Positions 2,391 through 52,829 of a stretch of DNA of 64,000 nt are shown piece after piece. The notes below the pieces were generated by a model. It ran no database searches. It was given only the letters and a program-made list of their open reading frames with translations, and was not told the DNA's origin. The position numbers were made by a program, and so were the translations under genes. The stretch is from Malacoraja senta (lineage: Eukaryota): NCBI GenBank assembly GCA_038087875.1, contig CM075988.1:9426001-9490000 (forward strand), read 5' to 3'. The number at the start of each line of letters is the position of its first letter. The first letter of the stretch is position 1.

Positions 2391-3443
2391 GACATTTTCG
2401 AGTGGCGGGGCAAACATTTCCTGGTTCTCGTTGACTCCTACTCCAGCTGGTTTGTGGTCGACCGGCTGCATTCCATGACCTCTTCGGCCGTCATCGACAG
2501 GTTGTACCCTCATTTTGGCACTTTTGGCCCCCCGGCAAGCCTGCAGTCGGACAATGGCAGCCAGTTCACGAGCTCCGAGTTTAAAGCGTTCGCTTCCAGA
2601 TGGAACTTCCGCCATTTCACCAGCAGCCCGGAGTACCCGCAAAGCAACGGTTTGGCTGAGCGCGCAGTCCGCAGTGCTAAGCACCTGTTGGAACAGTGTG
2701 GTGGCATTAACTCCGACTTCCATCTGGCCCTCCTCAACCTTCGGAACATTTTCCGCGACTCTGCCATGGGTTCACCTGCTCAGCGGCTCATGTCTCGCGC
2801 TACCAGACTCCCGCTCCCTGTGGCCCAGCGCTCCATCATACCCTCCATCCTCCCACCTGCGGCGGTTCAGAAACGCATTGCCTTCAGGCACGACGTCCAG
2901 CAGCTTTCCCATGACAGGTCCTGCCACCCGCTGCCGCGCCTCTTCCCCGGTCAAGTTGTCCGTATGCAGACCACTCCCGGTCACTCCAAGCTCGCTACTG
3001 TCGTCGGCTCTGCGGGGTCGCCCAGGTCCTATTTCGTCGACCACGCTGGAGCCATTTACCGACGGTCCCGCCAGCACCTTCGGCTCGTCAACGAGCCGCG
3101 TCCTCCTGCCGCGGATCCCTTTGCTCCCCCACTGCCTGTTTCGCGTCAGGGCGTTGCTCTGCCCGTCCTTCCTGACATGCAACGTTCTGCTCCTCCTCCG
3201 CCCCTTCCGTTCCATCCCACTCCGACTAGTCCTCGCTCGCCTGCCCGCACTCTTCCCGGTCCCGACCTCGCATCCCCTCCGGGTTCGGTGCCACGGTATC
3301 TTCCGTCTCCTCCCGTTTCTCCCTTTCAGGTTCGTCTTTCCCCGCCGGTGCCTCTTCCTCCTGCAGGGAGGGTGGATGGCGAGACGCGAACCCGGGCGGG
3401 ACGTCTTGTCAAACCGCCTGACCGCTATGGCGATTTTGTTTAA
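2391..3443 (+). pseudogene. pol: Gypsy integrase fragment (DDE core and Pro-rich C-terminus)
   Basis: ORF 2346..3443; the first ~15 codons are host flank; homologous to 15904-16944. Confidence 0.88.
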
Positions 3444-3512
3444 CTATCCTAGCGCATGAGCCGTGGTCGCCATGTCACCATTGTATTTGCCTGTCGTTTC
3501 GAATAGGAAAGA

Positions 3513-3716
3513 TGTAGATGAGATATGCATGTGCCTTTAACAGAGTGACCTCATACCTACTAACCACTCCCCATATCACAAGTATATCTATAACCTCCCC
3601 ACCCACAGATCGCTCTCTAGTTCCTGTGACAGACCACGTACAGCTAGTGCTATGTGTAATGCTCCAGTATGAATAAAGATAGTAAAGTAACGACGACTCG
3701 TTATGAATCCTTTACA
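3513..3716 (+). repeat. Gypsy LTR, 204 bp
   Basis: TGTAGA...TTTACA with AATAAA; homologous to 14357-14560 and 17014-17217. Confidence 0.92.
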
Positions 3717-4639
3717 GATATTAGAGTGGCAGTGGGTGTATGCAGCTGCAAGCATGTTCATCTGTGAGTATATGAACTGTTGTATGGATCCATTGTGGAT
3801 GTGTGTCTGTGTTTGTGTCCCTTTGTGTGTGGCCTTGTATGTGTCTGAGGTTAGTGTAGAAATTAGTGTGGGTTATGGATGCATGTGGCTACACATATGT
3901 GCATGCATGCAAATTGCCAACATATGTGTATAGGACTTGGAAAAATAAACAAATGCAATTTTCTGAACAAGGGTGACTCCAAGTAAAAGCTTCAATCAAT
4001 ATATATATTTACAGATGAAAAATCAGGCCTCTGTGAAGCATTACGAATCTCATTTACTGAAATGGTTTTGCTCAATAGTTCTGCAGAAAGATTTTCCTCA
4101 TCTCAAAGACCTTGATGTCTGATTCAGGAATTTTATTGCAGTGCTTCAAAATGCTGAGGCATGATTCATGAACATAAAAGTTCCCAAGTGAAGTGGACCA
4201 ATTTGTGAAGCCGTGAAGATAGATTCCAATGCTGCCGATCGCAGTTAGAGGCAGGGAATGCTCTTTTCATTTACTCTCAAGGACAATTGGAGGTAACATT
4301 AAATGCTGGCTAGGTCGTCATTTATTGTTCATCACTATTTGCCTTGAGAACTGGTGGTGAACTGTCATCATGACTTTTGCTGTCCTGGTCAGAAGACTCC
4401 CACAATGTTGATAGGCATGGAGTGTCAGGGTTTAGAAAGAGCGGTGAGAAAAACATTTGTAAATATATTTTCAAATGAGGGTGGTGTGCTTCTTGGAGAT
4501 GGAGCTACAGGTACTGTTATTGTCATGTGACAGGTACTGACCTGAAACGCCATCAGTCCGTTTCCCTCCAAAGATACTTCCTGACCCATTAGGTTCCTCC
4601 AGCACCTTGTTGAGTATGCTTTTAGGAAGAATTTTGCCA

Positions 4640-13989: not shown

Positions 13990-14690
13990 AGGAAGGATGC
14001 GGAGGATGTGGAGTGGGTGCAGAAGTGTTTTTACCAGATTGCTGCCTGAAATAGAGATTATTACTTATAAGGAAACGTTGGACAAAATTAGATTGATTTA
14101 TCTGGCATGTTGGAAGCTGAGGGTAGACCAAATAAAAGCATATACAATTATGAGAAGCATGAGACAGTCAGAATCTTTCTCCCAGTGTGGTAATGCCAAG
14201 GACAAGAGGGCATAGCTTTAAAGTGAGAGAGACAAAGTTAAAAGGAGATGTGCAGGGCAGGTTTTTTTTCACAGAGCATGGTGGGTGCTAGAAGGTACCG
14301 CCAGAGGTGTTGGTGGAGATACAGATGATAATGGTATTTAAGAAGCTTTTGGATAGTGTAGATCATATATGCATGTGCCTTTAATATAGTGACCTCATCA
14401 CTACTAACCACTCCCCATATCACAAGTATAACTACAACCTCCCCACCCACAGATCGCTCTCTAGTTCCTGTGACAGACCACGTACAGCTAGTGCAATATG
14501 TAATGCTCCAGTATGAATAAAGATAGTAAAGTAACGATGTGTCGTTAGAGCATCTTTACAGATAGGCACATGGATATGCGGGGAATAGAGGGACATGGAT
14601 CACGTGAAGGCCAGAGGAGTATAACTTGGCATCATGCTCAGCACAGACATTTTGGGCCAAAGGGCCTGTTCTTGTACTGTACTGTACAAT
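13990..14690 (+). mobile_element. Degenerate CR1-like LINE 3' fragment (target of the Gypsy LTR)
   Basis: Typical CR1 3' sequence continuing across the LTR at GGATAG|GCACATGG. Confidence 0.7.
14357..14560 (+). repeat. Gypsy LTR in solo-LTR configuration
   Basis: TG...CA, 204 bp, flanked by 5-bp TSD GATAG (14352-14356 and 14561-14565). Confidence 0.92.
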
Positions 14691-14731
14691 GACCTAATAC
14701 CCAATCAGAGCTTAACTTGATTGGTAAGAAT

Positions 14732-16944
14732 CAAGTTCGCGTCCCGGAGGTCACCTATGTTGGACATGTATTCACCGCCGAGGGGCTGAAACCCGACCCG
14801 CAAAAAACGGCTGCCATTTCCGGATGCCTTCTCCTACTGATGTGGCAGGCCTACAACGCTTCCTGGCATGGTGAACTATCTGGGGAGTTCATCCCCGACC
14901 TCAGCGAGCTCAGCGCTCCCCTGAGGGATTTGATAAAAAAGGACACGTCCTGGGTTTGGTTCCCCCACCACCGAAAGCCTTCGACATCCTTAAATCCAAG
15001 CTAATCAGTACCCCACACTCAAGTTTTTTTGATCTGCAGCGTCCCATTGTCCTCACCTGCGACGCCTCTCAGTTCGGACTCGGTGCCGCCTGTCTCCACC
15101 TCCATGACGGCCTACAGCTGCCTGTCTCCTTCGCATCCCGCACCATGACCGCCACCGAACAGCACTACGCGCAGATCGAGAAGGAGCTACTGGCCGTGGT
15201 GTTTGCCTGCTTCAAATTCAAAGACTACGTCCTGGGCAACACTTTCACCATTGAAACTGACCACCAGCCGCTTGTCACCATTCTCAACAAATCGATCCAT
15301 GTTGCCTCATCGCGCCTGCAGCGCATGATGCTGCAGCTCCAGCGCTTCACTTTCAACGTGGTTTATCGTAAGGGCAAGGACATGTTCGTGGCCGACACGT
15401 TGTCTCGCGCCCCGCTAACGTCCACCGTTCGCCACCCCTATGAGATGTCTGATCTGATGGTGCTCCAGGTGAACATCGTCCCTTCACAGCAGATGAAGTC
15501 CCTGGTTGAACACACTGCCAATGACCCTGCCCTGCAACAGCTTTCTGCCGTCATCCAGCGGGGCTGGCCCGACCGTCGTTCCGCGTTGCCGGCTGGCGCC
15601 GTGCCCTACTTCCTGGTCCGTGACGAGCTCGTACTACACGACGGCGTGGTGGTGAAGGGTCACAAGGTGGTCGTGCCTGCTGCGCTGCACGACCACTATT
15701 TTCAGGTCGCTCACCGCGGACATCCTGGGGCCGAAGCCACCGTGTCTCACGCCCAGAGCCAGTTCTATTGGCCTGGTATGGCCCAATACATCCGGGAGTG
15801 GGTCTCCTCGTGTTCTACCTGCTACAGTCTCGCCCCCCACCAGCAGCGTCAGCCGCTTCTGCAGCAGCCTGCCCCCGAACTGCCCTGGATGGCGGTTGCC
15901 GTCGACATTTTCGAGTGGCGGGGCAAACACTTCCTGGTTGTCGTTGGCTCCTACTCCAACTGGTTCGAGGTCGACCGGCTGCACTCCCTAACCTCTTCGG
16001 CCGTCATCGACAAGTTAGGCCATCATTTTTGCACTTTTGGCCACCCGGCAAGCCTGCAGTCGGACAATGGCAGCCAGTTCACGAGCTCCGAGTTTAAAGC
16101 TTTCGCTTGCCACCATTTCACCAGCAGCCCGGAGTACCCGCAAAGCAACGGTCTGGCCGAGCGCGCCGTCCGCAGTGCAAAGAACTTGCTGGAACAATGT
16201 CGTTTGTCCAACTCCGATTTCTATCTGGCCCTCCTCAACCTCCGCAACATCTCCCGCGACTCCGCCATGGGTTCCCCTGCTCAGCGGCTCATGTCTCGCG
16301 CTACCAGACTCCCGCTCCCTGTGACCCAGTGATCCCTCATACCGTCTGTCCTCACGCCTGCTGCTGTTCAGAAACGCATTGCCTTCAGGCACGATGTCCA
16401 GAAGCATTCCCATGACAGGTCCTGCCACCCACTGCCGCGCCTTTTCCCCGGTCAAGTTGTCCGCATGCAGACCTCTTCCGGTCACTCCAAGCTCGCTACC
16501 ATCATCGGCTCTGCGGGGTCGCCCAGGTCTTATCTCGTCGACCATGCGGGAACCATTTACCGACGGTCCCGCCAGCACCTTCGGCTCGTCAACGAGCCGC
16601 GGCCGCCTGCCGCGGACCCCTTTGCTCCCCCACTGCAGTTTCCACGTCCGGGCGATGCTCTGCCCGTCCTTCCTAACATGCAACGGTCTACACCACCTCA
16701 ACTCCTTCAGTCCCACCTTACTCCGTCTAGTCCTCCCTCGCCTGCCCGCGCTCTGCCCGCCCCTGATCCCGCATCACCTCCGGTTCTGGTGCCGCGGTCT
16801 TCTCCGTCTCCTCCCGTTTCCCCCTTTTCGGTTCGTCTGTCCCCATCGGTGCCTCTTCTTCCTGCCGAAAGGGAGGATGGCGAGATGCGAACCCGGTCGG
16901 GACGTGTTGTCAAACCGCCTGTCCGCTATGGCGATTTTGTGTAA
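14732..16944 (+). pseudogene. pol: Gypsy pol fragment (frameshifts; stop at 16330-16332)
   Basis: ORFs 14717..15004, 14956..16332 and 16465..16944. Confidence 0.9.
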
Positions 16945-17217
16945 CCGTCCTAGCGCATGAGCCGTGGTCGCCCTGTCACCATTGTATTTGCCTGTCGTTT
17001 CTAAGGGGAATGATGCAGATGAGATATGCGTGTGCCTTTAATATAGTGACCTCATCACTACTAACCACTCCCCATATCACAAGTATAACTACAACCTCCC
17101 TGCCCACAGATCGCTCTCTAGTTCCTGTGACAGACCACGTACAGCTAGTGCAATATGTAATGCTCCAGTATGAATAAAGATAGTAAAGTAACGATGTGTC
17201 GTTAGAGCATCTTTACA
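14732..17217 (+). mobile_element. 5'-truncated Gypsy element: RT C-terminus, RNase H, integrase, PPT, LTR (17014-17217)
   Basis: YVGHVFTAEGLKPDP, LTCDASQFGLGA, YAQIEKELLA, ETDHQPL, HHCC (AHRGH..CSTC), DDE core; same family as 2391-3716. Confidence 0.93.
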
Positions 17218-17786
17218 GATAGGCACATGGATATGCGGGGAACAGAGGGACATGGATCACGTGAAGGCAGAGGAGTATAACTTGGCATCATGCTCAGCAC
17301 AGACATTTTGGGCCAAAGGGCCTGTTCTTGTACTGTACTGTACAATGACCTAATACCCAATCAGAGCTTAACTTGATTGGTAAGAATGACCCCTTTGGGA
17401 GTAGTAGGTTTGGCATTTCAAGTTGGAGATTGTGCTGCATCAGGTTTGCAACCTGAACTAACACCCATGGTCTAGGTCTTCCCATGCTGACCATCTGAAT
17501 GTAAAGGTCTGATCCTATTGCCCCACTCTACCCTGGAGTCTGGAGGCAGGATCTAAAAATAACAGTGGCTGTTGCAGTTTAATGCAGTACGGCCCCCAAT
17601 GTCCTCAGACAGAATGCAATCCCATGGCAGAACTTTGTCTGTCATCAAATTTCTTCATGAATTTAAAGACATAAAGTGCTGGAGTAACTCAATCATATCT
17701 CCATGCCCTAGCATGAATTGATTGACCTTGAAGCTTGTGCAGTGTACATTTATAAAACAGATTCCTGGCATGAGGGGATGGTACCC

Positions 17787-29285: not shown

Positions 29286-32200
29286 ATGCAAGATGATAAA
29301 CAAAATAAATTTGGAGGAATCACATTCTGCAGTTGGAATATTAGGGGTGCTAATGAACCAATTAAAAGGGGTAAGATTTTTGCACAATTGAAGTCACTCA
29401 ATACGGACATAATATTCCTACAAAAAACTCACTTGAAACTGCAAGCTCAAGCCAGATTGAAGGCAAACTGGATAGGCCAAACATACCAATCTTCATATAT
29501 TTCCAAAGCTAGAGGCACAGCAATCATTATTCGAAAAGGTATACCATTTAAATCGAAGAATATCATGACAGATAAGGAAGGGAGATACCTTATAGTTACC
29601 GGAGAGATTCATGCTACCCCAATTACCTTGGTAAATATTTATGCACCTAATTTTGATAATCCTCAATTTTTAAATAAAATTTTGAATATAATTAGAGTTC
29701 AATTATCAAAATGTGATAATTGGGGGAGATTTTAACTGTGTTTTAGATCCATATTTGGATAAATCTTCACAACAGAGTAGGGGCAACACAAAATCTAAAA
29801 CCAGGGAAATCTTAAATACTTACATAAAAAAAACAAATATACCAGATGTTTGGAGGATCGCTAACCCTGTCGGAAGGGAATACTCATTTTATTCAATGGT
29901 ACACAAAACTTATTCACGTATCGACTATTTCCTAGTGGATACAAAATTAATTCCCTATACAATGAATCCAAAATATCATAATAGTATAATTTCTGATCAC
30001 TCCCCGTTAACTTTTTTTTTTAAATTAGAAGGAATGCCTTCTAATAAATCGTTTTGGAGGTTTAATCCTCAAATCTTAAATGACCCACAAGGGGAAATAT
30101 ATTTAAAACAACAGATGGAACTTTTTTTAAAGAATAATGACACCCCAGATACCTCACCAGTTCTAATATGGGAATCATTCAAAGCAGTTATTAGAGTATC
30201 TATAATCTCATACCAAGCTTTTTAAAATAAAAGAAATAAGAAAGAACAAAGGCAGTTAGAAGAACGAATTAGAGAATTGGAATTAGATAATGCTAAAGAG
30301 CCTACTATAGACAAACATAATAAAATAACAATAATGAAATTTAAATTAAACAAAATATTATCAGCAAATGTTATTAGATTATTTCAAATCACAAAACAGG
30401 AAAATTTTGAATTTGGGGATAAACCACACAAGCTTCTGGCTCGACAACTGAAAAAACGGGAAAAGGACCACACGATTTTAAAGATTAAATCAGATAAAGG
30501 GGAATTGTTAACACTACCTAAGGATATTAATAAAAGATTCACTCAATTTTATCAAAATTTATATACATCTAAAGCGGTAGCAGATAGTACCAAAGTTAGA
30601 GAGTTCCTGGATAATTGTAATCTCCCAAAACTCAATGTGAGTGAACAAGAGGAATTAGGTGCACGTCTCAACTAAGGAAATAGAAGAAACAATAAATACA
30701 TTAAAGAATGGAAAAACTCCAGGACCAGATGGTTTTAGTAATGAATTTTATAAAAGATTTTACGAGATAATTACACCACGACTACATAACTGTATACATA
30801 TGCTTTTAAACAACATACACTTCCAGAAACATTGGCGGAGTCAACGATTACACTTATACCTAAAAAAGGTAAAGGTTTAGAAGATCCGGGTTCTTATAGA
30901 GCTATTGCGCTGTTAAATACAGATCAAAAAATATTAGCGAAAACATTAGCTAGAAGGCTAAGTAACTATGTCAGTAAATTCATAAATCCGGATCAAACAG
31001 GGTTTATACCCAAGAGATATTCAAGTAATAACCTGAGACATCTGTTTAATATAATGCACTCACATAAAACCGAAGAGCAAGACTTATCAATTATTTCACT
31101 GGATGCAGAAAAAGCATTTGATCAAGTGGAATGTGATTATATGGTTAAAGTATTGCAAAAATTTCAAGTGGGAGAAAATTTTATAGCTTGGGTAAAATTA
31201 TTATATGATAGGCCTACGGCCAGAATATTAACTAATAATATTTTGTCCTCGAAATATCAGTTATCAAGGGGAAATAGACAGGGGTGTTCATTATCACCTC
31301 TGCTATTTGCTCTTGTAATAGAACCGTTAGCGGAAAGTATTAGGATACATCCGAATATTCATGGGTACAATACAAAATATTCAAATAATAAGATATCTTT
31401 ATATGCAGGTGATGTACTACTATATATTACAAAATCACAAACTAGTATACCAAATATATTAAATTTAATTGAGGAATTTGGATCCTTTTCAGGATATAGA
31501 ATAAATTGGAATAAAAGTGAAATTATGATGATTAAACCTCAAGAATCGACACACCTGTTAAAATTCCCTTTTAAAATCGCTTCAGAAAAATTTAAATATT
31601 TGGGAATTGAAATTACTAGAAAATATAAATCTCTATTTAATGCAAACTATATGCCCTTACTCAATAAACTAAACACACTGATTAAATTCTGGAAAACCCT
31701 CCTGATGTCTCTTATAGGCCGAATAAATGCTATAAAAATGATCTTTTTACCACAAATTTTATATCTATTCCAGTCAATAAAATATACTTACCCAAAAATT
31801 AAAAAAAAAAATTTGGATGCTGATATTACAAATTTTATATGGGTCTATAAATCCCACAGAATCCAAAGAAAACATTGTGTAAACCTAAGGAATTTGGTGG
31901 ATTATCACTCCCCAATTTTTTATATTATTATTGGGCCACAAATGTCAAAAATATGATTCACCTGTTGGACAATTCGGCCCAACGGGTGAATTGGATAGTA
32001 ATGGAGAGAGAGGACTGTTCCCCTTTTAACATAGGAGCGATCCTTCTCTCACCAACAAAAATAAAGAATACAATATATAGTAAAAATCCAATTATTCATA
32101 GTACAATTAGAATTTGGAAACAAATAAAATTAACGTTAAAATTAAGAAATCTATCACTTCTTTCACCTATAATGAATAACCCTTTGTTTAAACCTTCTAT

Positions 32201-33071
32201 GATGGATAGAGCTTTTATAAATTGGGAAAGAGTAGGAATTAAAACGTTTGGAGATATGTATGATAATGGACGTTTTTTAACATTTCACCAATTACAACTT
32301 AAATACAACTTGAATAGTAATCAATATTTCAAATATTTTCAACTACGTGACTATTTGAAAAAGTATACACGAGAATATCAAAATATGTCTCCTGACCTAT
32401 TAGATGGGATAATGAATATATAAGCGGAATCAGCTAATTTAATATCATACCTATATAATTCCATTTTAAATATAGAAATTCCATCATCGGACGGGATTAG
32501 AAGAGAATGGGAACAGGAACTAGCTATAAAAATCTCAAAAGAGAGTTGGGATAAACATCTATTATATGTGCATACATGTTCGATTAACGTAAGACATACT
32601 CTGATTCAATTTAAAATTTTACATAGATTATATTATTCAAAAGCTAAATTAAGTAAATTTGATCCAAATACCTCTGCTAACTGTGATAAATCCCTAGTCC
32701 AAGAATCAACTATAGCACATTCTTTTGTTTTTTGTATAAAAATTCAAATATTTTGGAATGACATTTTTGAAATTTTCACCAAATTATTTGAAATAAAACT
32801 GAAACCGAATGCAGAACTGATTATTTTTGGAACAATAGAAGCAAGTTTGGAGCTGACTGCGTTTCAAAGGAGTTTTCTTAGTTATGGCTTAATAACGGCA
32901 AAAAAACTGATACTGAAATTTTGGAAAAAAGCTCATACGCCAACAATAAAAATGTGGACTTCTAATATGTCGGAATTGTTACATCTAGAAGATATGAGAT
33001 TCCTCCTAGCAGATAAACAAGACCAATTCCAAAAGATTTGGTCTCCATATATCGACTTATTACAAACATAG
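29286..33071 (+). pseudogene. L1 ORF2p (APE endonuclease, RT, C-terminal domain), multiple frameshifts
   Basis: SWNIRG, NIYAPN, GGDFN, YSRIDY, SDH; KTPGPDGF, SYRAIALLN, LDAEKAFD, RQGCSLSP, YAGD (mutated YADD). Confidence 0.95.
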
Positions 33072-36040: not shown

Positions 36041-36460
36041 TATCCACAACATGCTTAACCCCCCTCGGCTTGTTAGGCACATTGATATTTCCAAACAGAA
36101 GAGCCGATGTTCAAACGTTCAGATTGAGGTAAACTAGGCTGGAAATAGCTGGGATCATTCTGCCCGCTCTAATTCTTAGCACACCAGGGTGTACTTTGGC
36201 CACTCATGAGATATTGTCCATTCCTTTGCAGGTGAAAAGTGATGCTGGAAATAGCATTTTGTGAGCGATTAGCTTGTTGAGCTGCCTCACAAAATAAATG
36301 TGTAGTGTCACTCACGTTGAGAAAACCCCCAGATGCATGTAGGCTTTTCCATCTGCCTCTGGAGCATAGATATTAATTTCAATAAAGAACATCTGTTCCC
36401 ATTATCTGAATATTTTTGACAAATGTTTGACCATATAGATTGGAATAGATAGGGTAGGTG

Positions 36461-37474
36461 TGTCGGGGTTTAGTTCCCTTTGCTCCACTCCGGGCCCAAC
36501 TGCCCGAGTGATTCTCTCCCTTGTCGGTGGGTCAAATGGCCACCACTCCACTCGAGCGGTTCCCAAGAGAGAATACATAAAATGGGTTCCCCTGGGTTCT
36601 AGACCTCGGAATTATGGTGGGATATGATAAAAGGTTGACTTGACCAGAGCGTGCTGATGAGAGAAAACAGAAACTAAGACGGACTCAAAGCAAGTCTAAA
36701 ATTTACAGGCTTTATTGAACAAATGAGAAATCGAATCTCACCAACTCTACATAATACGTGACTAAACTTATGCTTTAAACTAAGACTATGGAAAGAAAAT
36801 TATCGGGCATGTCGTAAAAACTTACTTTACACAATTTTAATTACAAATGCACCCCCTTTCCCCTTCTTCTCTCAACCTCTATCCTATTTCGGGAACTTCA
36901 CCAGGTCGTCTGGGGTACTTACAGCTAGATCGATGCAGGATCACGAGTCGTCCAACAGAGCAGAAAAAGAGAGCGAGCTCTTGCTTGCCTATCCCTTTTA
37001 TACCCGAGTTTCTCCCTTGAAACCTCCCAGGTGGTCCTCTGGACAAAAGGGTCTTTCGATGATTCCCAGTTTCGATCTGGCATGAACAATAGGCTTCCGA
37101 TGATAATGGGTTTGCTGATGTCACGATGCATCAGCTTAATCGTTATCCCATCACCTGGATGGGCTCCCATTGTCCTGATGGATGGGCCATTTACGATGGT
37201 GATTGTCTTGCTGCTGGGCGATTTACCCCCGTCTGCTGGGCTCGGTACCTTCCTTTGTCTTTCCAAGATAATCTCGTTATCTCCGTCCCGGCCTTTCCTG
37301 TTCTCACCATTCGCATAGTCATGTGGCTGCCCAGGCCCACAGACAGGTTTTAAACTTGTTCTTCTGTGATCCCTTGGGGGTTTTCCTTTTGCAGCCAGCA
37401 TGTCTGTTTTAAAATGTCCAGTTCCTTATCCCCGAGTTCTTCCATAATTTGAGGATTTTCCCCAATAACTTACA
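36461..37474 (-). repeat. ERV 3' LTR (1014 bp)
   Basis: Colinear with 44969-45982; about 24 substitutions by manual count and no indels seen. Confidence 0.96.
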
Positions 37475-37823
37475 GGCTTGCACGGACCGTATCGATTGAC
37501 AAAGTTAGTGGGCTACTCCTCCAGCCTCAAGAGCTGTAAACACCCCTGTCGAGATGGTGAAATTATGTACCCCGAAAGACCCCATAATTGCTAAACTAGA
37601 CCCTTGAAGCACATTAACTTACACTATACACCTTTTACTTTAAATCAATCCCACAAACCACACAGTACCATCATGACCGTTCACCGAAAATGCAGGGAAC
37701 ACAACATATGTACTAAAACCATTGCAATAGAGTACAGACATTTTACAGTGCCAAGGTGTCGTTACAGCTGCGTCGGGCGGCTCGATTTACCAGCTGTTGT
37801 AATTTGGTCATCCTCCTTCCCCT

Positions 37824-39005
37824 TTAAAATTTGCAATTAATACATAGCAAATACACCACAATTATCATCTGGCAGATGATCAGAACATGGGACACGATGC
37901 GGACCCATACTGGAACTACGATCCAGGACTCCAGGTCCCACCAACTTGGAGACTTGATTTCTTCGATCTCCCTGGCGATATCCAGTGTCTTTTGTTCCAG
38001 GGAGAAGAAGTGTTTGTGCGACAACTCGACCGCCGCCAGCAACTCTTTTAAATTTTCCTTTACTGGGGGAATATCATACCCGAAATGGGCCACGTAGTTA
38101 GATAAGTCCGTTACATTGTCTCGTACCAAGAGGTGAACCAAAGAAGGTTCCGGGATGGGTAATATTCGCTGCTGTGCCACATGGACTTCTGCCCTGGGTT
38201 TAAAACAGAAGCTGCTGTGTGGTATCGGGCACCACAGCTGTGATCCGTGCTGATACCGCTGGGCACTTGTGGTGACACAGTATGTCCCACTGCCTATATA
38301 CGCCACCTGTGGAGGGACATGGTCTGCCGCCATCGCCTCCTTGGTACAGTTTATAGGCTGTGCCCCAACAGTCCTGAACCCACACTGAGGCCTAGCCTTG
38401 GCGCCCATGTGCTCCCCGGCTCCGACAACCCAAAAGGTCAATGCCTGTCACAGCTTGCTCCCTCACTATGACATAAGGCAGGAACTTCCTGTAGCGAATA
38501 TACACCCCCCCACGAACAACTCCCACGTTCTCCACTCGGTACAGAGGAGCTGGTCGTGCCGAGGTTCCCATCACCGGGATTCTTACGACCACTCCCATTA
38601 TGGTGTGATTGGACTTTCCACAATCCACTGGTACCGGGTAGGCCTCGGAGGCCACACGAAGCTGACAAGGACTCAAAGTGCTGTTATAAGGGTGTAGCGC
38701 TGCTAGGTGCTGGTTGCTTATCCAGGAGGGGACCTGACCTTGCCTCAGGTCTTCCAGGTTGCTCCTCCCCTCCCCCAACAACCACGCACCATACAGCCCA
38801 CACACCTCATTCTGTGCAGCCTGATCGGACGCATTCCGGTCCTCTTTAATCAAAGCGTTTATCGTTTTTGCATGTGTCTCCAATTGTGCTATGATTTCTT
38901 TTAGATGTAGAGTCATTGCCACCTCTTCGTGCAGCCCCGATCCTACCACCGCATTTTCCTCCCCCAGAACCACGTTGCCATCATCCATACGGCGGGGCTA
39001 CCCAT
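37824..39005 (-). pseudogene. env: env-like class I fusion glycoprotein (F-type), internally deleted and frameshifted
   Basis: Heptad repeat LHLKEIIAQLETHAKTINALIK, Cys-rich beta region, second heptad LKELLAAVEL..LEQKTLDIAREIEEI, WW plus TM segment (VPVWVRIVSHVLIICQMIIVVYLLCI); located after IN. Confidence 0.8.
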
Positions 39006-39326
39006 CTGGAAAACAAAGCAAAACACCTCCTTTCCTCCACATCGCTGTCCGCATCCCTGCACTCCATCACACCCATGGAAGAGTGGCCATCCGGCCGACG
39101 GTAGTGGCTACCGTCCTAATAATGGCATTCGGGGTTTTGCCTTTGTCTGTTGTGATCTACTTTTCCACAACCCATCCCTTCGATGCAGCCGACGTTCCCG
39201 TACTGTCCGTCCCTGTACTCCCCTGTATCTATACAAAACCCTATATCTTATTACCAAACGCTAACTACATCTACTCACACACAAACCAATGCTATATACA
39301 ACGCCACCCGTCTCCGGGTGGCCAAC

Positions 39327-41095
39327 TCATAACTGGTCCCCGTCACGCTGGGGCCACCCCTCTGGTGGGCCCACCCGTGCAGGCCAGAACTCCTCCTGTC
39401 GAGGGGCCTGACTGCCCCTCACCTCCCTTTGCACTACGGGGTTTCGAGATACCCCTACGTTCCCTGTGGAGACTGGGCTCCCTCCAGCCGCACTCCGTAG
39501 TGCCCTGTTTCGGCCACTCTCCCTCCCGGCCCTCCTGTGGCCGGCCCTAGCCCTAGGTTTAATTAGGGATGGGGACCACCTTACTGGGGGTTTAGTGACC
39601 CTGTTACTCCTACATCTGACCGGGGGTTCCCACACCAGAGGTGATACCTCCATCTCCTCTGCTTCTGCTAGTTCTGCCTCTCTTAGGCAGTCTATGGTAC
39701 CTGCCTGCGGAGGGCTGGTATCAGCATCCTTCCCCGCTGCTTCCAGTCCTCGCCCTGGGACACAGCAGGCTACTTCAGGCTGACTACCTGTGGGCTCGCC
39801 TGGCTCCCCTACGGTTTCCACATCAACCCGGGTCTGTTCTTGATCCTGTTCCCTGACATGTACCCCTTTCTTACTTTTCCCTGCCCTTGTGGGGTCAATC
39901 AATTTACACTGGTTGATGTGGAACCATTTGACTCTACGGGGAAGCTGAATGACATACACCATGGGACTGGCCTTGTCCACTATGTTGTATGGGCCAGCAT
40001 ACAAGGGTTCGAACACCCCTCCCCAGCATATCTCCTGACCATTACCTGGTCCCCCACTGCCCACTCGCAATGCCTATGAGGCTCCAGCAGTAGCTTGTTT
40101 CTTTGGTGCTGGGCCCCCATGTTTCTGGCTGCCTGCCAGTGAACCTGCCTAAGTTGTTCAAATAGCCTCTTGGCGAACTTGTCCCGGTTCACTTCCCTGA
40201 GCTGTCCCTCTGTTAGGGCTGGGACCATAACGTGCATGGACGTTCTCATGACCCGGCCCGTCATAAGCTCATGGGGAGAATACCCCGTACTCCTGGACTG
40301 GCTGGCCCGAATCCCCATAAGGACCAGGGGTAAAACCTCCACCCACAGGTTGGGTGAGTCCCCTGTTTCCTTCCTTATCCTTTCCTTTATTGTCCGGTTC
40401 AACCGGTCTACCAGACTTGAGGACTGGGGGTGGTAGGCCACATGCCACTTGGCCTTGATGCCCAGTATTCTAAGGGTGGACTGCATGACCTGTCCCGTGA
40501 AATGGCTCCCCTGATCTGACTCCACGATCTGTGGGAATCCCCACCTGGTGAACACCTCCCTAACCAGGATTTTTGCTGTACCCATAGCGGTGGCTGCTCT
40601 GCAAGGGAAGGCCTTTGAGAACACATCCACAAGGAGTAAGCAGTACTTGTAACCCCCTTGAGCGGTTGGAAGGGGTCCGATGTAGTCGATTTGAATCGAC
40701 TGCCATGGCCCCTCCACCCTCTTGATGTGTCCCATAGAAACCTTCCTTTTCTGGGGGTCTGGGATGTTTGCTGCGCAAACCAGACAGCTTGCGCAAAAGT
40801 CGCGAACGTCTCCCCTGAGCCCTGGCCACCATCCTGCCATCTCTACTCGCTGCCATGTGGTCTCTGGCCCGGGGTGACCTGCCCCTGGACACTCATGGGC
40901 TAGTTTTAAAAATTCCCTTCTGTACAGGGAAGGCACTACCCACTTATCTCCCTTGAATAACATGCCTTCCTTTACTGACATGTCTTTACCCCGATATGGT
41001 CCCTCTATCTTCTCCTGCCTGCAAATGGCTGCTGAGGCAGCCTTTAAAATGGGGTCTTGTGCCTGGACCATGGTCAGGTCCGGGGCCAAAACCAC
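39327..41095 (-). pseudogene. pol: ERV integrase (HHCC, DDE, GPY/F C-terminus)
   Basis: AHECPGAGHPG..CASCLVC, IQIDYIGPLP, ESDQGSHF, YHPQSSSLVDRLN, FEPLYAGPY. Confidence 0.93.
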
Positions 41096-41117
41096 TCCCG
41101 CACTCCCCTTTTCTCGA

Positions 41118-41240
41118 GGCTTAATGTATGTGGGAGTTTAAGGGCTAGGGCTATCTCCGCCTCGGGGTCCCAGATCCCACAGCCCGTGAGCCTTATGCCC
41201 TCGGACACGATACTGGACCCTTCCACGTATATTTCCCAAC
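41118..41240 (-). pseudogene. pol: N-terminal remnant of a second (retroviral-type) RNase H
   Basis: WEIYVEGSS..GIRLTGCGI..LKLPHTLS resembles YxDGS..GxG; breaks off just before the expected AQxAEL helix. Confidence 0.7.
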
Positions 41241-41367
41241 CCGTGGGATGTAACCCTGCTCTAAGCCCAAAGTCCACCTCCCATACCTCTTCCACCGAGC
41301 AATGGTGTGGCTCCCCTGGGTACACGAAATTGGCTGCGAGCTTGGGCTCACATAGCCTCTCAACCCG

Positions 41368-41790
41368 TCAGGCCATTTGGGAAAGGAGAAGGGTCCAGCG
41401 AGTGATCCTCGCACTGCTAACGGTCCCATCCTTAATCCGACCGTCCAGCAGCATCTGGGTTGGGGTATGGTGGGTCAGGAGGGTGATGGGGGACATTCTT
41501 ATGAAGACCTGTACCCTCTTCACAGCCCAGTATGTGGCTAGCAGGTGCCGCTCACAGTTTGAATAGGACCTTTCTACCTCTGTGAGGACTCTGGAGGAAT
41601 ACACCACTGGCCTTAACTTGCCATGCCGTTCCTGGAGGAGCACTGCGCCCAGGCCATCGCTGCCTGCGGCTACCTCCAGGAAAAATTCCTCCCTGTAGTC
41701 GATGGCTCCCAGAGCTGGGGCCTTTTGCAGGTCCCGCTTCAAATGAACGAATGCCGACTCGCACTGCTCATCCCACTCCCACTCTACCAC
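41368..41790 (-). pseudogene. pol: Degenerate Ty3/gypsy-type RNase H (tether/connection domain)
   Basis: FFLEVAAGSDGLGAVL, PVVYSSRVLT..ERSYSNCERHLLA, LLTHHTP, ARITRWTLLL; catalytic acidic residues replaced. Confidence 0.85.
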
Positions 41791-42560
41791 TTTGCATAGA
41801 AGCCGGTGCAGAGGTGCTGCGGTCGCGGCATAGTCCTCTATAAAGTCTCGGCAGTAGCCCGTGACTCCCAGAAATGACCTTACCCCCCCACGTCCGTTGG
41901 GACTGGGAGTTCCTGCACTGCCTGCCTTCTTGCGGTATCGATACCCCTTTCTCCGGCCCTAAGGGTCAGTCCCAAGAACTTTATCTCTTGTAACCCTATC
42001 TGTGCCTTCTTGGGATTTACTTTTAAACCGCTCTTACAGAGCAGCTCCAGCAGTTCGTTTACTGGGGGCCCATGTTCCTCACTGGTGTCCGTGAATAGCA
42101 AAATATCATCCACATACTGGACGACCTTGTGGGGCTTACTGAATTCCTTTAAATATTCCGCCATACATTGGTGGAAAATGCTGGGGCTATTGTGGAACCC
42201 TTGGGGAAGACAGTTCCACGTGTACTGCTGCCCCTTGAATGTGAAAGCAAATTTGTACTGGTCTTCCTTCCTGACCGGGATAGACCAGAAACCGCTGGAA
42301 TTTCCCTTAATAAGTCTGCTACGTCTGCCACAGTTGGTGCGCAAGCCGGAATGTTCTTATTCAGGACCCTATAATCTACCGTGGCCCTCCATGAATTGTC
42401 TGGCTTCCGTACGGGCCAGAGCGGTGAGTTCACGTGGGTGGCTATGGGCCTCACAACGCCTTGCTTAACCAGTGAACTCAGGGCGACTTCTAAGTCAGCC
42501 TCTGCTTCTCGGGGAAAACTATACTGTTTCTGCGGTCAGGACATGGGATCCCCGTCTATC
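41791..42560 (-). pseudogene. pol: ERV reverse transcriptase (frameshifted, small deletion near motif A)
   Basis: NSPLWPVRKPDNSWRATVDYRVLN, KFAFTF, LPQGFHNSP, QYVDDILL, KFLG. Confidence 0.94.
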
Positions 42561-42699
42561 CTGACCTCTGTTCCTGTGACCCTTCCACAGTCGTGCTTGT
42601 GAGTAGCGAATGCGGCCAAATTTCGCTTAACATGGCCTCGATACTCTGTCGGGGTCTGCCTCACTAGGGCCTCTACATCGTACCCCTCTCTGGTCTTCA

Positions 42700-43157
42700 C
42701 GACACACAGAGCCCCTCTCTCTGGTGCCCTCTCGATCACCATTACCTCCTTCTCTCTCTCAGCCCCTTCTCCTGCTATGCCCCACAAACAGTGGTTCCTC
42801 AGGTCCTGGTGGGCCACTATAAAGTCGGCGCCTAGTATCCCCTTTCCCTCCTGCTCCCAACTCATCAGGATGCACTTCCACTGTGCCTGGAGTGCTCCTG
42901 GAGTGCTCCTAATCGAATGGACAAGGGAATGGACAGAGAAAAACCCCGTCTTCTCGTTTCCCGTAAATCCGACAAGACTATAGGGCACCCCACTAGATAG
43001 AGGGGATGTACGGGGATTGTCCGTGGACAATGGTACTGGAAGCACCTGTGTCCAGCAGGTAACTCCCGACCACATCCTGCACCTCCATCTTGACCCAGGG
43101 TCTCCCACATGGGCCATACTCTAACGGGCATAGGAATGTGGGCTGTTTCGCTGGCAG
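42700..43157 (-). pseudogene. pro: ERV aspartic protease (frameshifted)
   Basis: Minus strand CTG CTG GAC ACA GGT GCT TCC = LLDTGAS near 43040-43058; ILGADF downstream. Confidence 0.85.
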
Positions 43158-44966
43158 TCATAAAGGTGCCGGAGGTGCGGATACGGGCGCGCCCTGGCCT
43201 GTTGCCATGGCTACCTGTCTGGACCCTCCAGCCTTGGACTGCAAATAGGCCAATAGATCTTTTACATCTATTGTTACCGGCACGGCCGCTCCCTCCTCCG
43301 GGGCTGGGTCGGCTGTTACCGGGGTCCTATCCTCCACTGCTCTACTTGGGTTTCTGCACTCCCTCTTGTAGTGCCCGGGCTTCCCACACCCGTAGCACAC
43401 CGGCCTCATCTTGGAAGAGGTCCGGCTGCCTTCCTGTTTCCACTCCCTCCTTTTGGGGGGTGCCGGTACTATATTGTGCACCTTGCCCTTAAAGGGCTTC
43501 TCCTCACTTCTCTCCCCATTGCGATACGCAAGGGTGAGCTCCTTTATTACCTCCGCCTCGTTAAGGTTTGGGTCCGCTGGGTCGAACCAGTGCTCGGCCT
43601 TTGCCCTAACTCGCGGGAGGCAATTCGCTACCAGAGTCTTCAGCCAGTGGGCTGTTCTCTCATCTAAATTCCGCCTATCTAAAGGTGTCCCACACGCTCC
43701 CTCATACACTGCCCACAGTCTGTCTGCGAACATGTCCGGGGACTCAGCTACCTGCTGCTTCGTCTCCCCCACCCTGGCGAAAGGACTACCCTGATTCAAC
43801 CCCATGGCCTCCAGAACCTACCCATGTTTCAGGTCTTCCCCCTTCCCTGGAGGTCACCGCCTTGCATAGGTAGGAATCTAGGGTCATCAGTAGTAGCTTT
43901 ACCCGTTCTACCTCATCGCAATCGTTTATGTCGGCTGCCTGCTGCACCTCCATAAAATGCAATGACGGGTCTCCCGCCCTGGTTAACCTGGGAACGTGAG
44001 CCACCATCCCCCATGGGGAATGATGATATCACTCTCTATGGGCCCCCGATGGGCCCCCTATCTGCCTGCCATACCGGGGGACCATATTTCCTTTGTCGTA
44101 CCGGGCACATCTGCCCTACCCGGGGCTGTTGCCCCATTACCCCCTGCTCTCCCACCATGATCGGTAACCCCACCACCTCGTGGTGTGCTACACATGGCGC
44201 AGACGCCGCTAACTGAGGGTGCTCTCCCGCCCCTCCTTGGGCCTGTCCCTCCCCGGACAACCCGAGCCACACCTGCCGACCCGGACCTATTCCCCGTGCC
44301 TCAGGAGGCAGTCTATTCCCCTTTGCCCCTGTGGAATCATCTGCTGAGGGAAGCCCTCTGCCCCCGGGGGACCCCCCTAGTCCTACCAGGTGAACCCGTC
44401 CCCTAGTCTTGGACAGAGTCTCCTCCAGCTGCGCAACGCTTGCCTGGCAAGGCCCGTAATCACAATACCCTAACTCGCTACGGGCCACCCTGTATGCTGC
44501 TTGGATATCTTGGAACTTTCCCTCCAGCTCCCTGTATCTCTGTGTACTCTGAGCCAGGAGTTCCTGGGCATTCCGTTCCCTCTCCTTTGCCTCTACCGCC
44601 TGGCATTGGAGGAATTCCTGGGCATTTCTGTGGGACTCCCTAGCCTGCAAGATACACTGCCTGGCTTCACTGAGTTCCTCACATAGCCCTTCCCCTTCTC
44701 TAGCGCTTTCCTCAGCGCTGGCTCTAGCTTTTCTCAGTTGCTCTTCTAGACTCTCTACCTGTCTCTCTATTTTGGCTACCTGCTGTGATAGGCACGCTAG
44801 CCAAACTGTGCTGCTGTGCTGTCAAAAGTGGTACCACCCATTGTTTGGTGAGATTGATCTTTTTAAACAGATAAGAGGAGATTCTCTCCTCCATCTTGCT
44901 ACGTTCTCTCACCCCCTCTGGCAAGTCACATATCCCAAACCACCGAGGTCCTGCCGCGGTCGCCAT
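43158..44966 (-). pseudogene. gag: ERV gag (N-terminal coiled coil, capsid, single CCHC knuckle), frameshifted
   Basis: KQQVAESPDMFADRL (MHR-like), CYGCGKPGHYKREC, coiled-coil ORF 44036..44650. Confidence 0.85.
44948..44965 (-). promoter_or_regulatory. Primer binding site (tRNA-Ser-like)
   Basis: TGGCGACCGCGGCAGGA begins 3 nt after the terminal CA of the 5' LTR; TGGCG...GGCAGGA resembles the complement of a tRNA-Ser 3' end. Confidence 0.7.
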
Positions 44967-44968
44967 TC

Positions 44969-45982
44969 TGTTGGGGTTTAGTTCCCTTTGTTCCACTCCG
45001 GGCCCAACTGCCCGAGTGATTCTCTCCCTTGTCGGTGGGTCAAACGGCCACCACTCCACTCGAGCGGTTCCCAAGAGAGAATACAAAAAAGGGGTTCCCC
45101 TGGGTTCTAGACTTCGGAATTATGGTGGGATATGATAAAAGGTTGACTTGACCAGAGCGTGCTGATGAGAGAAAACAGAAACCAAGACGGACTCAAAGCA
45201 AGTCTAAAATTTACAGGCTTTATTGAACAAATGAGAAATCGAATCTCACCAACTCTACATAATACGTGACTAAACTTATGCTTTAAACTAAGACTATGGA
45301 AAGAAAATTATCGGGCATGTCGTAAAAACTTACGTTATACAATTTTAATTACAAATGCACCCCCTTTCCCCTTCTTCTCTCAACCTCTATCCTATTTCGG
45401 GAACTTCACCAGGTCGTCTGGGGTACTTACAGCTAGATCGATGCAGGGTCAGGAGTCGTCCAACAGAGCAGAAAAAGAGAGCGAGCTCTTGCGTGCCTGT
45501 CCCTTTTATACCTGAGTTTCTCCCTTGAAACCTCCCAGGTGGTCCTCTGGACAAAAGGGTCTTTCGATGATTCCCAGTTTCGATCTGGCATGAACATTAG
45601 GCTTCCGATGATAATGGGTTTGCTGATGTCACGATGCATCAGCTTAATCGTTATCCCATCACCTGGATGGGCTCCCATTGTCCTGATGGATGGGCCATTT
45701 ACGATGGTGATTGTCTTGCTGCTGGGCTATTTACCCCCGTCTGGTGGGCTCGGTACCTTCCTTTGTCTTTCCAAGATAATCTCGTTATATCCGTCCCGGC
45801 TATTCCTGTTCTCACCATTCGCATAGTCATGTGGCTGCCCAGGCCCACAGACAGGTTTTAAACTTGTTCTTCTGTGATCCCTTGGGGGTTTTCCTTTTGC
45901 AGCCAGCATGTCCGTTTTAAAATGTCCAGGTCCTTATCCCCGAGTTCTTCCATAATTCGAGGATTTGCCCCAATAACTTACA
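44969..45982 (-). repeat. ERV 5' LTR (1014 bp) with TATA box (~45504-45510) and AATAAA (~45219-45224)
   Basis: Minus strand TGTAAG...CCAACA; GGTATAAAAGGG lies upstream of AATAAA. Confidence 0.96.
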
Positions 45983-46310
45983 GGTGCACAGAGTGTTTTA
46001 CCCAGGGTGGGGGAATCACAAACCAAAGGTCATTGGTATAAGGTGAGTGGAGAAAGAGGGGCAACTTTTTCCACACAGAAGGTGGTGGGTATATGGAACG
46101 AGCTGCCACATGGTATAGTTGAGGCAGGTAGTAAACAACATTTAAAGGACATTTGGATAGGTATACGGGTAGGAAAGGTTTAGCGGAATATGGGCCTAAT
46201 GCAGGCAGGTGAGACTAGTGTAGACTAGTTGGCATCTCAGTTGGCATGGGCAAGTTGGGCCGAAGGTCCAGATTCCATGAAGTATTATTCTATGACTCTG
46301 TCTATAACTC
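45983..46310 (+). mobile_element. CR1-like LINE 3' fragment continuing from ~36438-36460 (ERV target)
   Basis: Rejoined flank reads GGAATAGATAGGGTAGGTGCACAGAGT, a typical CR1 3' sequence. Confidence 0.8.
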
Positions 46311-51018: not shown

Positions 51019-52829
51019 AAGTTCTGTCTCACTGTGCGAGTTGACCCACGAGTGACCCCGAGTGAAAGACTCGTGGTTGCGTACAATACTACAAGTTTAT
51101 GATCCAGAGTTTAACCGAGTTCCCACGGGTATGTCTAAGTTTCCCGTTTACTTCTCATTTCTGCGATGTTCCAAGTTCGTCTCCCGAGTTACCAAGTTCC
51201 TCTCCCGTTAATCTTGAGGCAACAATGTATATCGAAGTGTTGAAAAATCATCACATGTTAAAAAAAAATGATGTCATGCCAGCCAAAGAACGTAGAGACT
51301 ATTGTGTTTGCTGCATGTGTTCTGCACAACCTGATCCGTATCAGAGGTGCAGCTTCAGGATCAGCAACAGCCATGCAGGACGGTGACTTAGTGGACAGTC
51401 AAACAGGGAGAATAACACTAGGTGCGTGGAGGAGTGGTACAAACGACGAGACTTTGGTGCCACTGCAGTGTTTTCGAGGTACGGGGACCAACAGTGCAAA
51501 AGAGCAGAGAGACCATCTCTGCTCCTACTATAATTCAGAATTGGGCAGTGTGCCGTGGCAGGACAGCTTATTTTGAGCGGCTGCCGACCACAGGTACATC
51601 ACTGCATGAGGAGAGCCCACATGCAGAAAAATCCAGTTAATTTCATGTTTAGTTTAAATCCTGCTGACTTTTCATTGTTTAACTTTAAGTGTGGATTTTA
51701 TTTTTTATTGTGGTGTAAAAGTAATTTCATTGCATCTGTCTTTCCTTTAAAACGTGGTTATCATTCATCTGCTTACCTGATTGTAGATCTCAAAACTTGT
51801 CATTTAGCGCATTGCATTGTATCTTTTATTGCCTGAATTTAGACTAGTGCATTTCTCAGCTGAATTAGTATATAGTGAAAATACTTGTATTTGTGGTTCA
51901 TTTGTTGATTTTCATGTATGAGAAGCCCTTTTCAGACAGTGGTGTTTGCTGTAGTGCTACGTTTCTCAATATGCGCAAAAAAGCGTTTTTTATATTGAAC
52001 AAGAATAAAGACTTTGTTTCACATTCAAGACATTTGTTTCACATAAGACTTTGTCTTATTTTCTGATCTACTAAGAGGTGACAATTTTAAACATTTAAAA
52101 AGCACAGCATATGAGGCAGCTGAGTCCTTAAATCTCACAAATGATTGTGAGAATCAAGATGTGAATATATTTTGCCTTCCTCTATTTTGTGTTTTATGAT
52201 GAAAGGAATATTACATTCAAGTCATGAGACTTTGTAGTGATATTAAAATGAACACTTCCAGACATCAATTTGATCTTGATAGCAAAGAACTCTCTTTTAT
52301 TGTGCAATGAAGTAAACAAACAGTGAGAATCAAACGGTCCAGCAAAAAGCTTTTCAACACAACACAACACAACACAAATTTATATATAAACTTCAAGCAA
52401 TTTTTTCTTTTCAACCCACTCTGTCACCTTAATAATAACTTGCTTAACTTTGTTAAGCAGAATTTGTCTTTAAAAAGTCTAAGTAACTGATATTTCTGTC
52501 CCTGATTATTGTTTCTAAAAAGAGTTCCCACGGTAGAATCACGAGTCACAAAGTTAAACGCACGGGCCACTACGTTCTTACAACGAGTTTAAATGTTTCA
52601 ATTTTTAACCACAAGAGTACATTTTACTCGTGGAAAAGTTCAAACGTGTTTGAACTTTTGCAAGAGTTAACAAGTTTCACGTGTACCTCCCGTTAGCACC
52701 AAGAGTCGCTAAGTTGCGTCCACGAGTTCAGACGTTTCCGCTACGTTAATTGTACGTGATTACCACGAGTTAAATTTGTTTTAAACTCGGGGTCACTCGT
52801 GGGTCAACTCGCACAGTGAGACAGACCTT
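51019..52829 (+). mobile_element. Internally deleted PIF/Harbinger DNA transposon
   Basis: ~45-bp TIRs (CTGTCTCACTGTGCGAGTTGACCCACGAGTGACCCCGAGT), TAA TSD at 51016-51018 and 52830-52832, transposase remnant. Confidence 0.88.
51268..51576 (+). pseudogene. Harbinger DDE transposase C-terminal fragment
   Basis: IVFAACVLHNLIR...AKEQRDHLCSYYNSELGSVPWQ. Confidence 0.82.

Follow-up and report, generated by a model that had tools for sequence, protein, structure and literature searches.

Positions 41118-41790 of the window, by which we mean the whole 64,000-nt stretch of Malacoraja senta DNA analysed here, very probably hold the middle of the pol gene of a decayed endogenous retrovirus (ERV) from within the canonical Retroviridae, with the snakehead retrovirus (SnRV)-like group (class III, clade Huo) as its most likely home. 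The element has the features of Retroviridae: a provirus layout, a tether followed by a second RNase H, and a reverse transcriptase (RT) that falls among those of vertebrate ERVs. The SnRV-like label is most likely given the RT identity counted by eye, the layout of Gag, an Arg primer site of the kind attributed to SnRV, and the hosts of the nearest relatives.

The element spans 36461-45982 on the minus strand and is a 9.5-kb LTR-gag-pro-pol-env-LTR provirus with a primer site and a target duplication (Table 1). The LTR pair is 24 substitutions apart (K2P 0.024), giving an age of about 5.5 million years if the mammalian rate applies, or about 55 million years with the tenfold slower rate assumed for sharks in PMC4422223. 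No second copy of the element was found within the 64-kb window, and no RNA run is among the sequencing runs listed as containing it. The window copy is dead, and its stop, deletion and frameshifts are later damage. From its position ahead of the capsid we infer that the open reading frame (ORF) encoding a long coiled coil is gag; it gave no match when compared with the coelacanth relative P0248, and the capsid and zinc knuckle piece is 29% identical to the same protein (E 3e-07).

Table 1. Features of the provirus, with positions in the window.
Feature	Position	Strand	Details
5' LTR	44969..45982	-	1,014 bp, TG...CA ends
Primer binding site	44948..44965	-	18 nt, 3 nt from LTR; perfect complement of tRNA-Arg 3' end
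gag N-terminal part (inferred), long coiled coil, broken from remaining gag	44036..44821	-	weak coiled-coil-type Pfam matches below cut-off (residues 9-111)
gag capsid C-terminal part and single CCHC zinc knuckle	43158..43817	-	zf-CCHC E 6.5e-05, above cut-off
Protease remnant and reverse transcriptase	41883..43088	-	LPQGFHNSP, YVDD; RVT_1 E 1.6e-29; frameshifts and stop
Tether (connection), gypsy-type RNase H fold	41377..41700	-	Ala, His, His at three catalytic positions
Linker, tether to RNase H	41239..41370	-	in-frame stop 41370-41368
Second RNase H, retroviral-type, first three strands	41119..41238	-	remainder deleted at 41119-41121
Integrase: H2C2 zinc domain, rve core, SH3-like C-terminal piece	39900..41118	-	frameshift near 40070
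env remnant	37824..39200	-	stops, frameshift near 38410, hydrophobic C-terminal stretch
3' LTR	36461..37474	-	1,014 bp
Target-site duplication	45983-45986 and 36457-36460		GGTG, 4 bp

Two parts of the provirus carry open frames beyond this layout. In the integrase the Integrase_H2C2 (E 2.5e-15) and rve (E 6.3e-11) domains are followed by an SH3_Tf2-1 match below the cut-off (E 7.6e-05), and after this SH3-like piece comes a long low-complexity tail, acidic and then basic (39330-39900, minus strand), within an ORF at 39327-40073 in which Pfam matches stop at residue 55 with none further. The extension may represent either the tail of the integrase or an accessory ORF. Within the LTRs, too, there are open frames of 129-166 codons, at 36925-37425 and 45437-45826, on both strands and partly kept in both LTRs; 3' accessory ORFs are present in SnRV.

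The first of the two RNase H domains scores far above the Pfam cut-offs (RT_RNaseH_2, E 3.6e-25; RT_RNaseH, E 2.7e-22), and together with the motif alignment this agrees with the claim of an earlier, sequence-only reading that it is a gypsy RNase H in which three catalytic positions are non-acidic. The three motifs share one minus-strand frame, with EVAAG at 41676-41662, CERHLLA at 41556-41536 and LTHHTP at 41478-41461. In a fold predicted from 20 aligned sequences the domain runs beta-beta-beta-alpha-beta-alpha-beta, the RNase H-like order, with a pLDDT of 77-91, and the best match of the predicted fold of the window piece is murine leukemia virus (MuLV) RT (E 4.9e-14), followed by Ty3 and foamy RT. 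A gypsy-type element elsewhere in the window serves as an internal control and keeps its D/E/D motifs, with CDAS, EKELLA and TDHQP. The element family makes a clear teaching case, as the tether is still easily recognised as a gypsy RNase H.

That the tether is ancestral and not the product of decay after insertion is borne out by the relatives. Protein P0002, with 75% identity over 257 aa and an open frame, carries the same three non-acidic residues and combines RT_RNaseH with a whole RNase_H (E 2.4e-18), and P0003, at 39% identity, has the same layout and non-acidic residues (RNase_H E 2.4e-19). Since domain 1 is non-acidic in these relatives as well, the tether is a family trait. Fixed non-catalytic residues in other copies had been predicted, and P0002 and P0003 agree with this, as do four of four sequencing runs from four coded organisms (4 of the 20 runs containing the region were used), in which the differences listed include no change at the three tether codons. 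The constant loss is that of the first site; the second or third tether site is still acidic in some relatives. P0002 itself has a non-canonical catalytic Glu in its second RNase H and a non-canonical first zinc-binding His in its integrase, so it too is a decaying copy.

The start of the second domain is marked by WEIYVEGSS (41238-41212) and TGCGI (41187-41173), in the same minus-strand frame as the tether motifs, and the spacing of about 130 bp given in the sequence-only reading holds when counted from the end of domain 1 (41371). Profile searches gave a clear Pfam RNase H for domain 1 but nothing for the other segment: the 77-97 aa piece with the domain-2 start, taken alone, had no RNase H match in Pfam or PDB. 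The RNase H similarity expected of the peptide at 41118-41240 is therefore absent when it stands alone and present when it is read in frame with domain 1, in a collinear alignment to XMRV/MuLV RT (E 3e-17) that begins in the thumb, crosses the connection and reaches the first RNase H strand. The piece corresponds to residues 584-666 of P0002, whose Pfam RNase_H domain lies at 628-770, and the collinearity and this mapping both support the opening of a second, retroviral-type RNase H at this place. Structure prediction of both segments was in line with this, giving the RNase H fold for domain 1 and, at low confidence, three further strands at the start of domain 2, and the motifs predicted for an intact second domain (YVDGS..AQxAEL..TDS) are present in P0003.

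The truncation of this second RNase H by a deletion is likewise upheld by P0002 and the sequencing runs. On the integrase side, similarity to P0002 picks up again at residue 792 and in a different frame, a loss of about 125 codons; coming from either side, contigs of all four runs part from the window at 41119-41122. The window copy also departs from the canonical residue at the first catalytic position of domain 2; because all four runs differ from the window both at this codon and at the linker stop, both are damage of the window copy.

We then looked at how the two domains occur together among 254 aligned search matches. The first catalytic site is Asp in 207 of these, and none of the 207 has a second RNase H downstream, while none of the 17 matches in which a second RNase H was detected has Asp there; the remaining 30 have neither Asp nor a detected second domain and are short, divergent or decayed. 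As the matches are interrelated, the split of 17 and 207 reflects one or a few events and not 224 independent ones. P0002 aligns as one stretch (184-774) to XMRV/MuLV RT (E 5e-67) and to foamy RT, compared with an alignment to Ty3 RT that extends only to residue 602. The nearest named relatives of the element come from frogs, coelacanth and bowfin. Several ERV Pol proteins (P0072, P0089, P0090 and P0246-P0248) are labelled 'NYNRIN-like' or 'Gypsy retrotransposon integrase-like protein 1' in the database, which masks their retroviral nature.

In an RT tree of 42 rows the window and its family fall in a 26-row vertebrate ERV group (support 96/98) with opossum, bird and turtle proteins, apart from a Loki-type clade of five database proteins with Loki signatures (95/99) and from gypsy as a third group (100/98). 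Several rows of this first tree were short or long-branched, and a 19-row set was picked to drop those; in an AU test on the 19 rows, joining the family with the Loki-type rows and joining it with gypsy were both rejected (p 0.008 each). The references in these trees are database proteins rather than the type SnRV, foamy, or published Loki or Odin sequences; the Loki-type rows were named by motif match to the available part of the supplement of PMC7947760, and for the remaining ERV rows the labels come from the host and from the Pfam domains present. Branches within the ERV group are mostly without resolution in both trees. The window RT is 33-38% identical to the Loki-type rows, compared with 51-56% to its own family, and is 41% identical to that of P0251, which has an MLV-type integrase C domain. 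Viral contigs scanned with the RT piece gave 13 pattern matches, of which none was confirmed.

Placement within the ERV group relies on comparison with named retroviruses. Counted by eye over 42 RT residues (window 42293-42168) in six printed rows that we picked ourselves, SnRV had the highest identity (30), ahead of WDSV (25), Loki-Lca (24), HERV-L (23), SFV (20) and MuLV (17). A tether followed by an RNase H is common to SnRV, SnRV-like ERVs and the element, and SnRV differs in that the element is endogenous and broken. The SnRV primer site is probably of the tRNA-Arg type, for which a literature search returned no source. At 18 metagenome loci with the primer-site pattern of the element, 13 were a tRNA-Arg gene, one was an unassigned tRNA and four had none. 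According to the available part of PMC2717909, SnRV Gag combines a coiled coil at its N terminus with one zinc finger, as in the element. SnRV-like ERVs are present in the elephant shark (CmiERV lineage I), where CmiERV-1 measures about 9.56 kb (PMC4422223), close to the 9.5 kb of the element; its primer site differs from the tRNA-Arg site found here, and the elephant-shark element is therefore not of the same family. The available text of PMC4977317 reports SnRV-like ERVs from the hosts of the nearest named relatives and describes them as the major class in coelacanth, and that of PMC6001957 states that clade Huo infects all major vertebrate lineages.

These comparisons bear on three other readings of the region. 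An early candidate, suggested by the dual RNase H, the env and the coiled-coil ORF, was a lokiretrovirus or an Odin-like element, the first in cartilaginous fish and near the transition from retrotransposons to retroviruses. It is consistent with the putative F-like env, with relatives that carry 'NYNRIN-like' names, and with the position of the coiled-coil ORF before the capsid, Loki having an smc-like gene; as far as the available part of PMC7947760 shows, three chondrichthyan genomes contained no lokiretroviruses. Like the element, Loki and Odin have a dual RNase H with a non-acidic first tether site, and Loki has an F-like env (PMC7947760 and PMC9040795, in the parts available). A dual RNase H is common to all retroviruses, however, and so is not diagnostic of Loki. 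The RT and tether signatures differ: in the accessible supplement of PMC7947760, RCPFG appears in at least 76 places and CEKALL in at least 18, and CERHLL, HHTP, PQGFHNS and CAPTVA are absent among the Loki proteins listed there. Odin also differs in having no env, whereas the element has an env remnant. With the low RT identity to the Loki-type rows, their separate RT clade and the AU test added to these signatures, we dropped this candidate and consider it very unlikely.

An ordinary gypsy element, with one RNase H that has decayed since insertion and a 'second domain' that is a chance resemblance, deserves next to no credence. The copy is indeed damaged at many places, domain 2 alone is without a match, and Ty3 Gag-Pol gives the top PDB score for the whole of P0002, by a small margin and in two stretches. 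Domain 1 also shares its fold and Pfam families with Ty3/gypsy. In Ty3/gypsy, however, the first site stays Asp and a second RNase H is missing (207 of 207 matches), unlike in the element, which has an env and groups with ERVs. The open-frame relatives, the unchanged tether codons in the four runs, the intact gypsy motifs elsewhere in the window and the AU test together refute this reading. A canonical retrovirus outside the SnRV-like group, whether epsilon-like, on a class III branch of its own or from an unnamed lineage, strikes us as improbable, with somewhat more in its favour: the ERV-group backbone lacks resolution, WDSV came second by eye (25 of 42), and P0251 has an MLV-type integrase C domain together with its 41% RT identity. 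Against it, SnRV was clearly first by eye (30 of 42 residues, in the picked rows), Gag has a coiled coil and a single zinc finger, and the primer site is of the Arg type attributed to SnRV.

While the ancestor still replicated, the first of the two folds would have served as a non-catalytic connection holding the RNA/DNA hybrid in position, and the second domain, of RNase H1 type, would have cleaved the RNA strand in the course of reverse transcription, by analogy with MuLV and foamy virus. This putative division of labour is drawn from the solved retroviral RTs. In MuLV/XMRV and foamy RT (PDB 4mh8, 4hkq, 7ksf and 7o0g) the polymerase, connection and RNase H are collinear, as in the element, and the folded piece is 28-30% identical to MuLV and 17-20% to foamy RT. 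One difference is that MuLV retains an acidic first tether site in the XMRV/MuLV alignment and the element family does not.

The sequence-only reading went further and took the pair of domains for an intermediate state between LTR retrotransposons and retroviruses. This we do not accept, given that the element bears an env, its RT lies within vertebrate ERVs and the layout is universal in retroviruses. The tether with a second RNase H is here the finished retroviral state, collinear with MuLV, and the dead-plus-new pair was correctly seen and is already explained. The tether-plus-RNase H layout was reportedly set out by Malik and Eickbush in 2001 (as cited in PMC7947760) and has been a textbook mark of retroviral pol since. 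According to the available parts of PMC7947760 and PMC12440569 every retrovirus pairs a tether with a new RNase H, and the true intermediate in print is Odin, with a dual RNase H and no env (PMC9040795, available part). The tether finding itself thus adds little, the layout being long known and SnRV-like ERVs already reported from one cartilaginous fish.

The envelope may hold more that is new. The env remnant is 79% and 62% identical to protein P0294 of the sawshark Pristiophorus japonicus, a relationship that points to a cartilaginous fish as the host. Neither the env piece nor P0294 had a significant match in Pfam or PDB sequence searches, and the window env piece itself had no usable match in the ESM Atlas. 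For P0294, the ESM Atlas features placed paramyxovirus F (PF00523) and baculovirus F clusters first (0.92, 201 of 256 features shared), with the best family matches agreeing in 10 of 10 and a structure match to a baculovirus-F cluster at TM 0.58, under the tool's naming bar. Because shuffled proteins reach 0.9 in 4-10 of 100 control cases, the F-type assignment of P0294 is a good lead and not proof. The single-sequence fold of P0294 has a pLDDT of 34.6, and by eye the window env follows the pattern of the Loki Env rows at low identity. A second sawshark gene model, P0295 ('Niban 1-like'), has the family env as its first 250 residues (78% to the window) and is a chimeric annotation or an exonised env.

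F-type Env has been described for Loki (PMC7947760) and, by structure, for foamy virus (PMC11468914), in the available parts of these papers. According to the available portion of the preprint of PMC13524379, canonical vertebrate retroviruses generally have a retroviral class I Env, with vertebrate ERVs deferred to later work. Our literature search found no paper linking SnRV Env to F; it mostly left out subscription journals, so such a link may be in print. We tentatively suggest, at rather less than even confidence, that a lineage of SnRV-related canonical retroviruses in cartilaginous fishes has a short paramyxovirus-F-type (subclass Ib) Env, resembling that of Loki and, in structure, that of foamy viruses; as far as our literature search shows, this pairing with an SnRV-related pol is unreported. 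If true, F-type Env would occur in three deep branches near the root of retroviruses, which would speak for a common ancestor that already had one, with replacement following in the other orthoretroviruses. An F-type Env on an SnRV-like pol would bear on whether env had independent or shared origins, and the Loki and Odin papers (PMC7947760, PMC9040795), in their available parts, leave open an independent env gain by canonical retroviruses and Loki.

Other repeats surround the provirus. The gypsy-type element used above as internal control lies at about 14200-17300 on the plus strand, with 255-bp repeats at 14357 and 17014 and a related piece at 2400-3800. At 29692-33071 (plus strand) lies a LINE, presumably L2/CR1, in which parts of the endonuclease and RT survive, and a short transposase-like piece at 51066-51576 (plus strand) is presumably Harbinger. 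Numerous SINE-like repeats are dispersed in the window, and a long (TG)-rich array occupies 49.5-50.5 kb.
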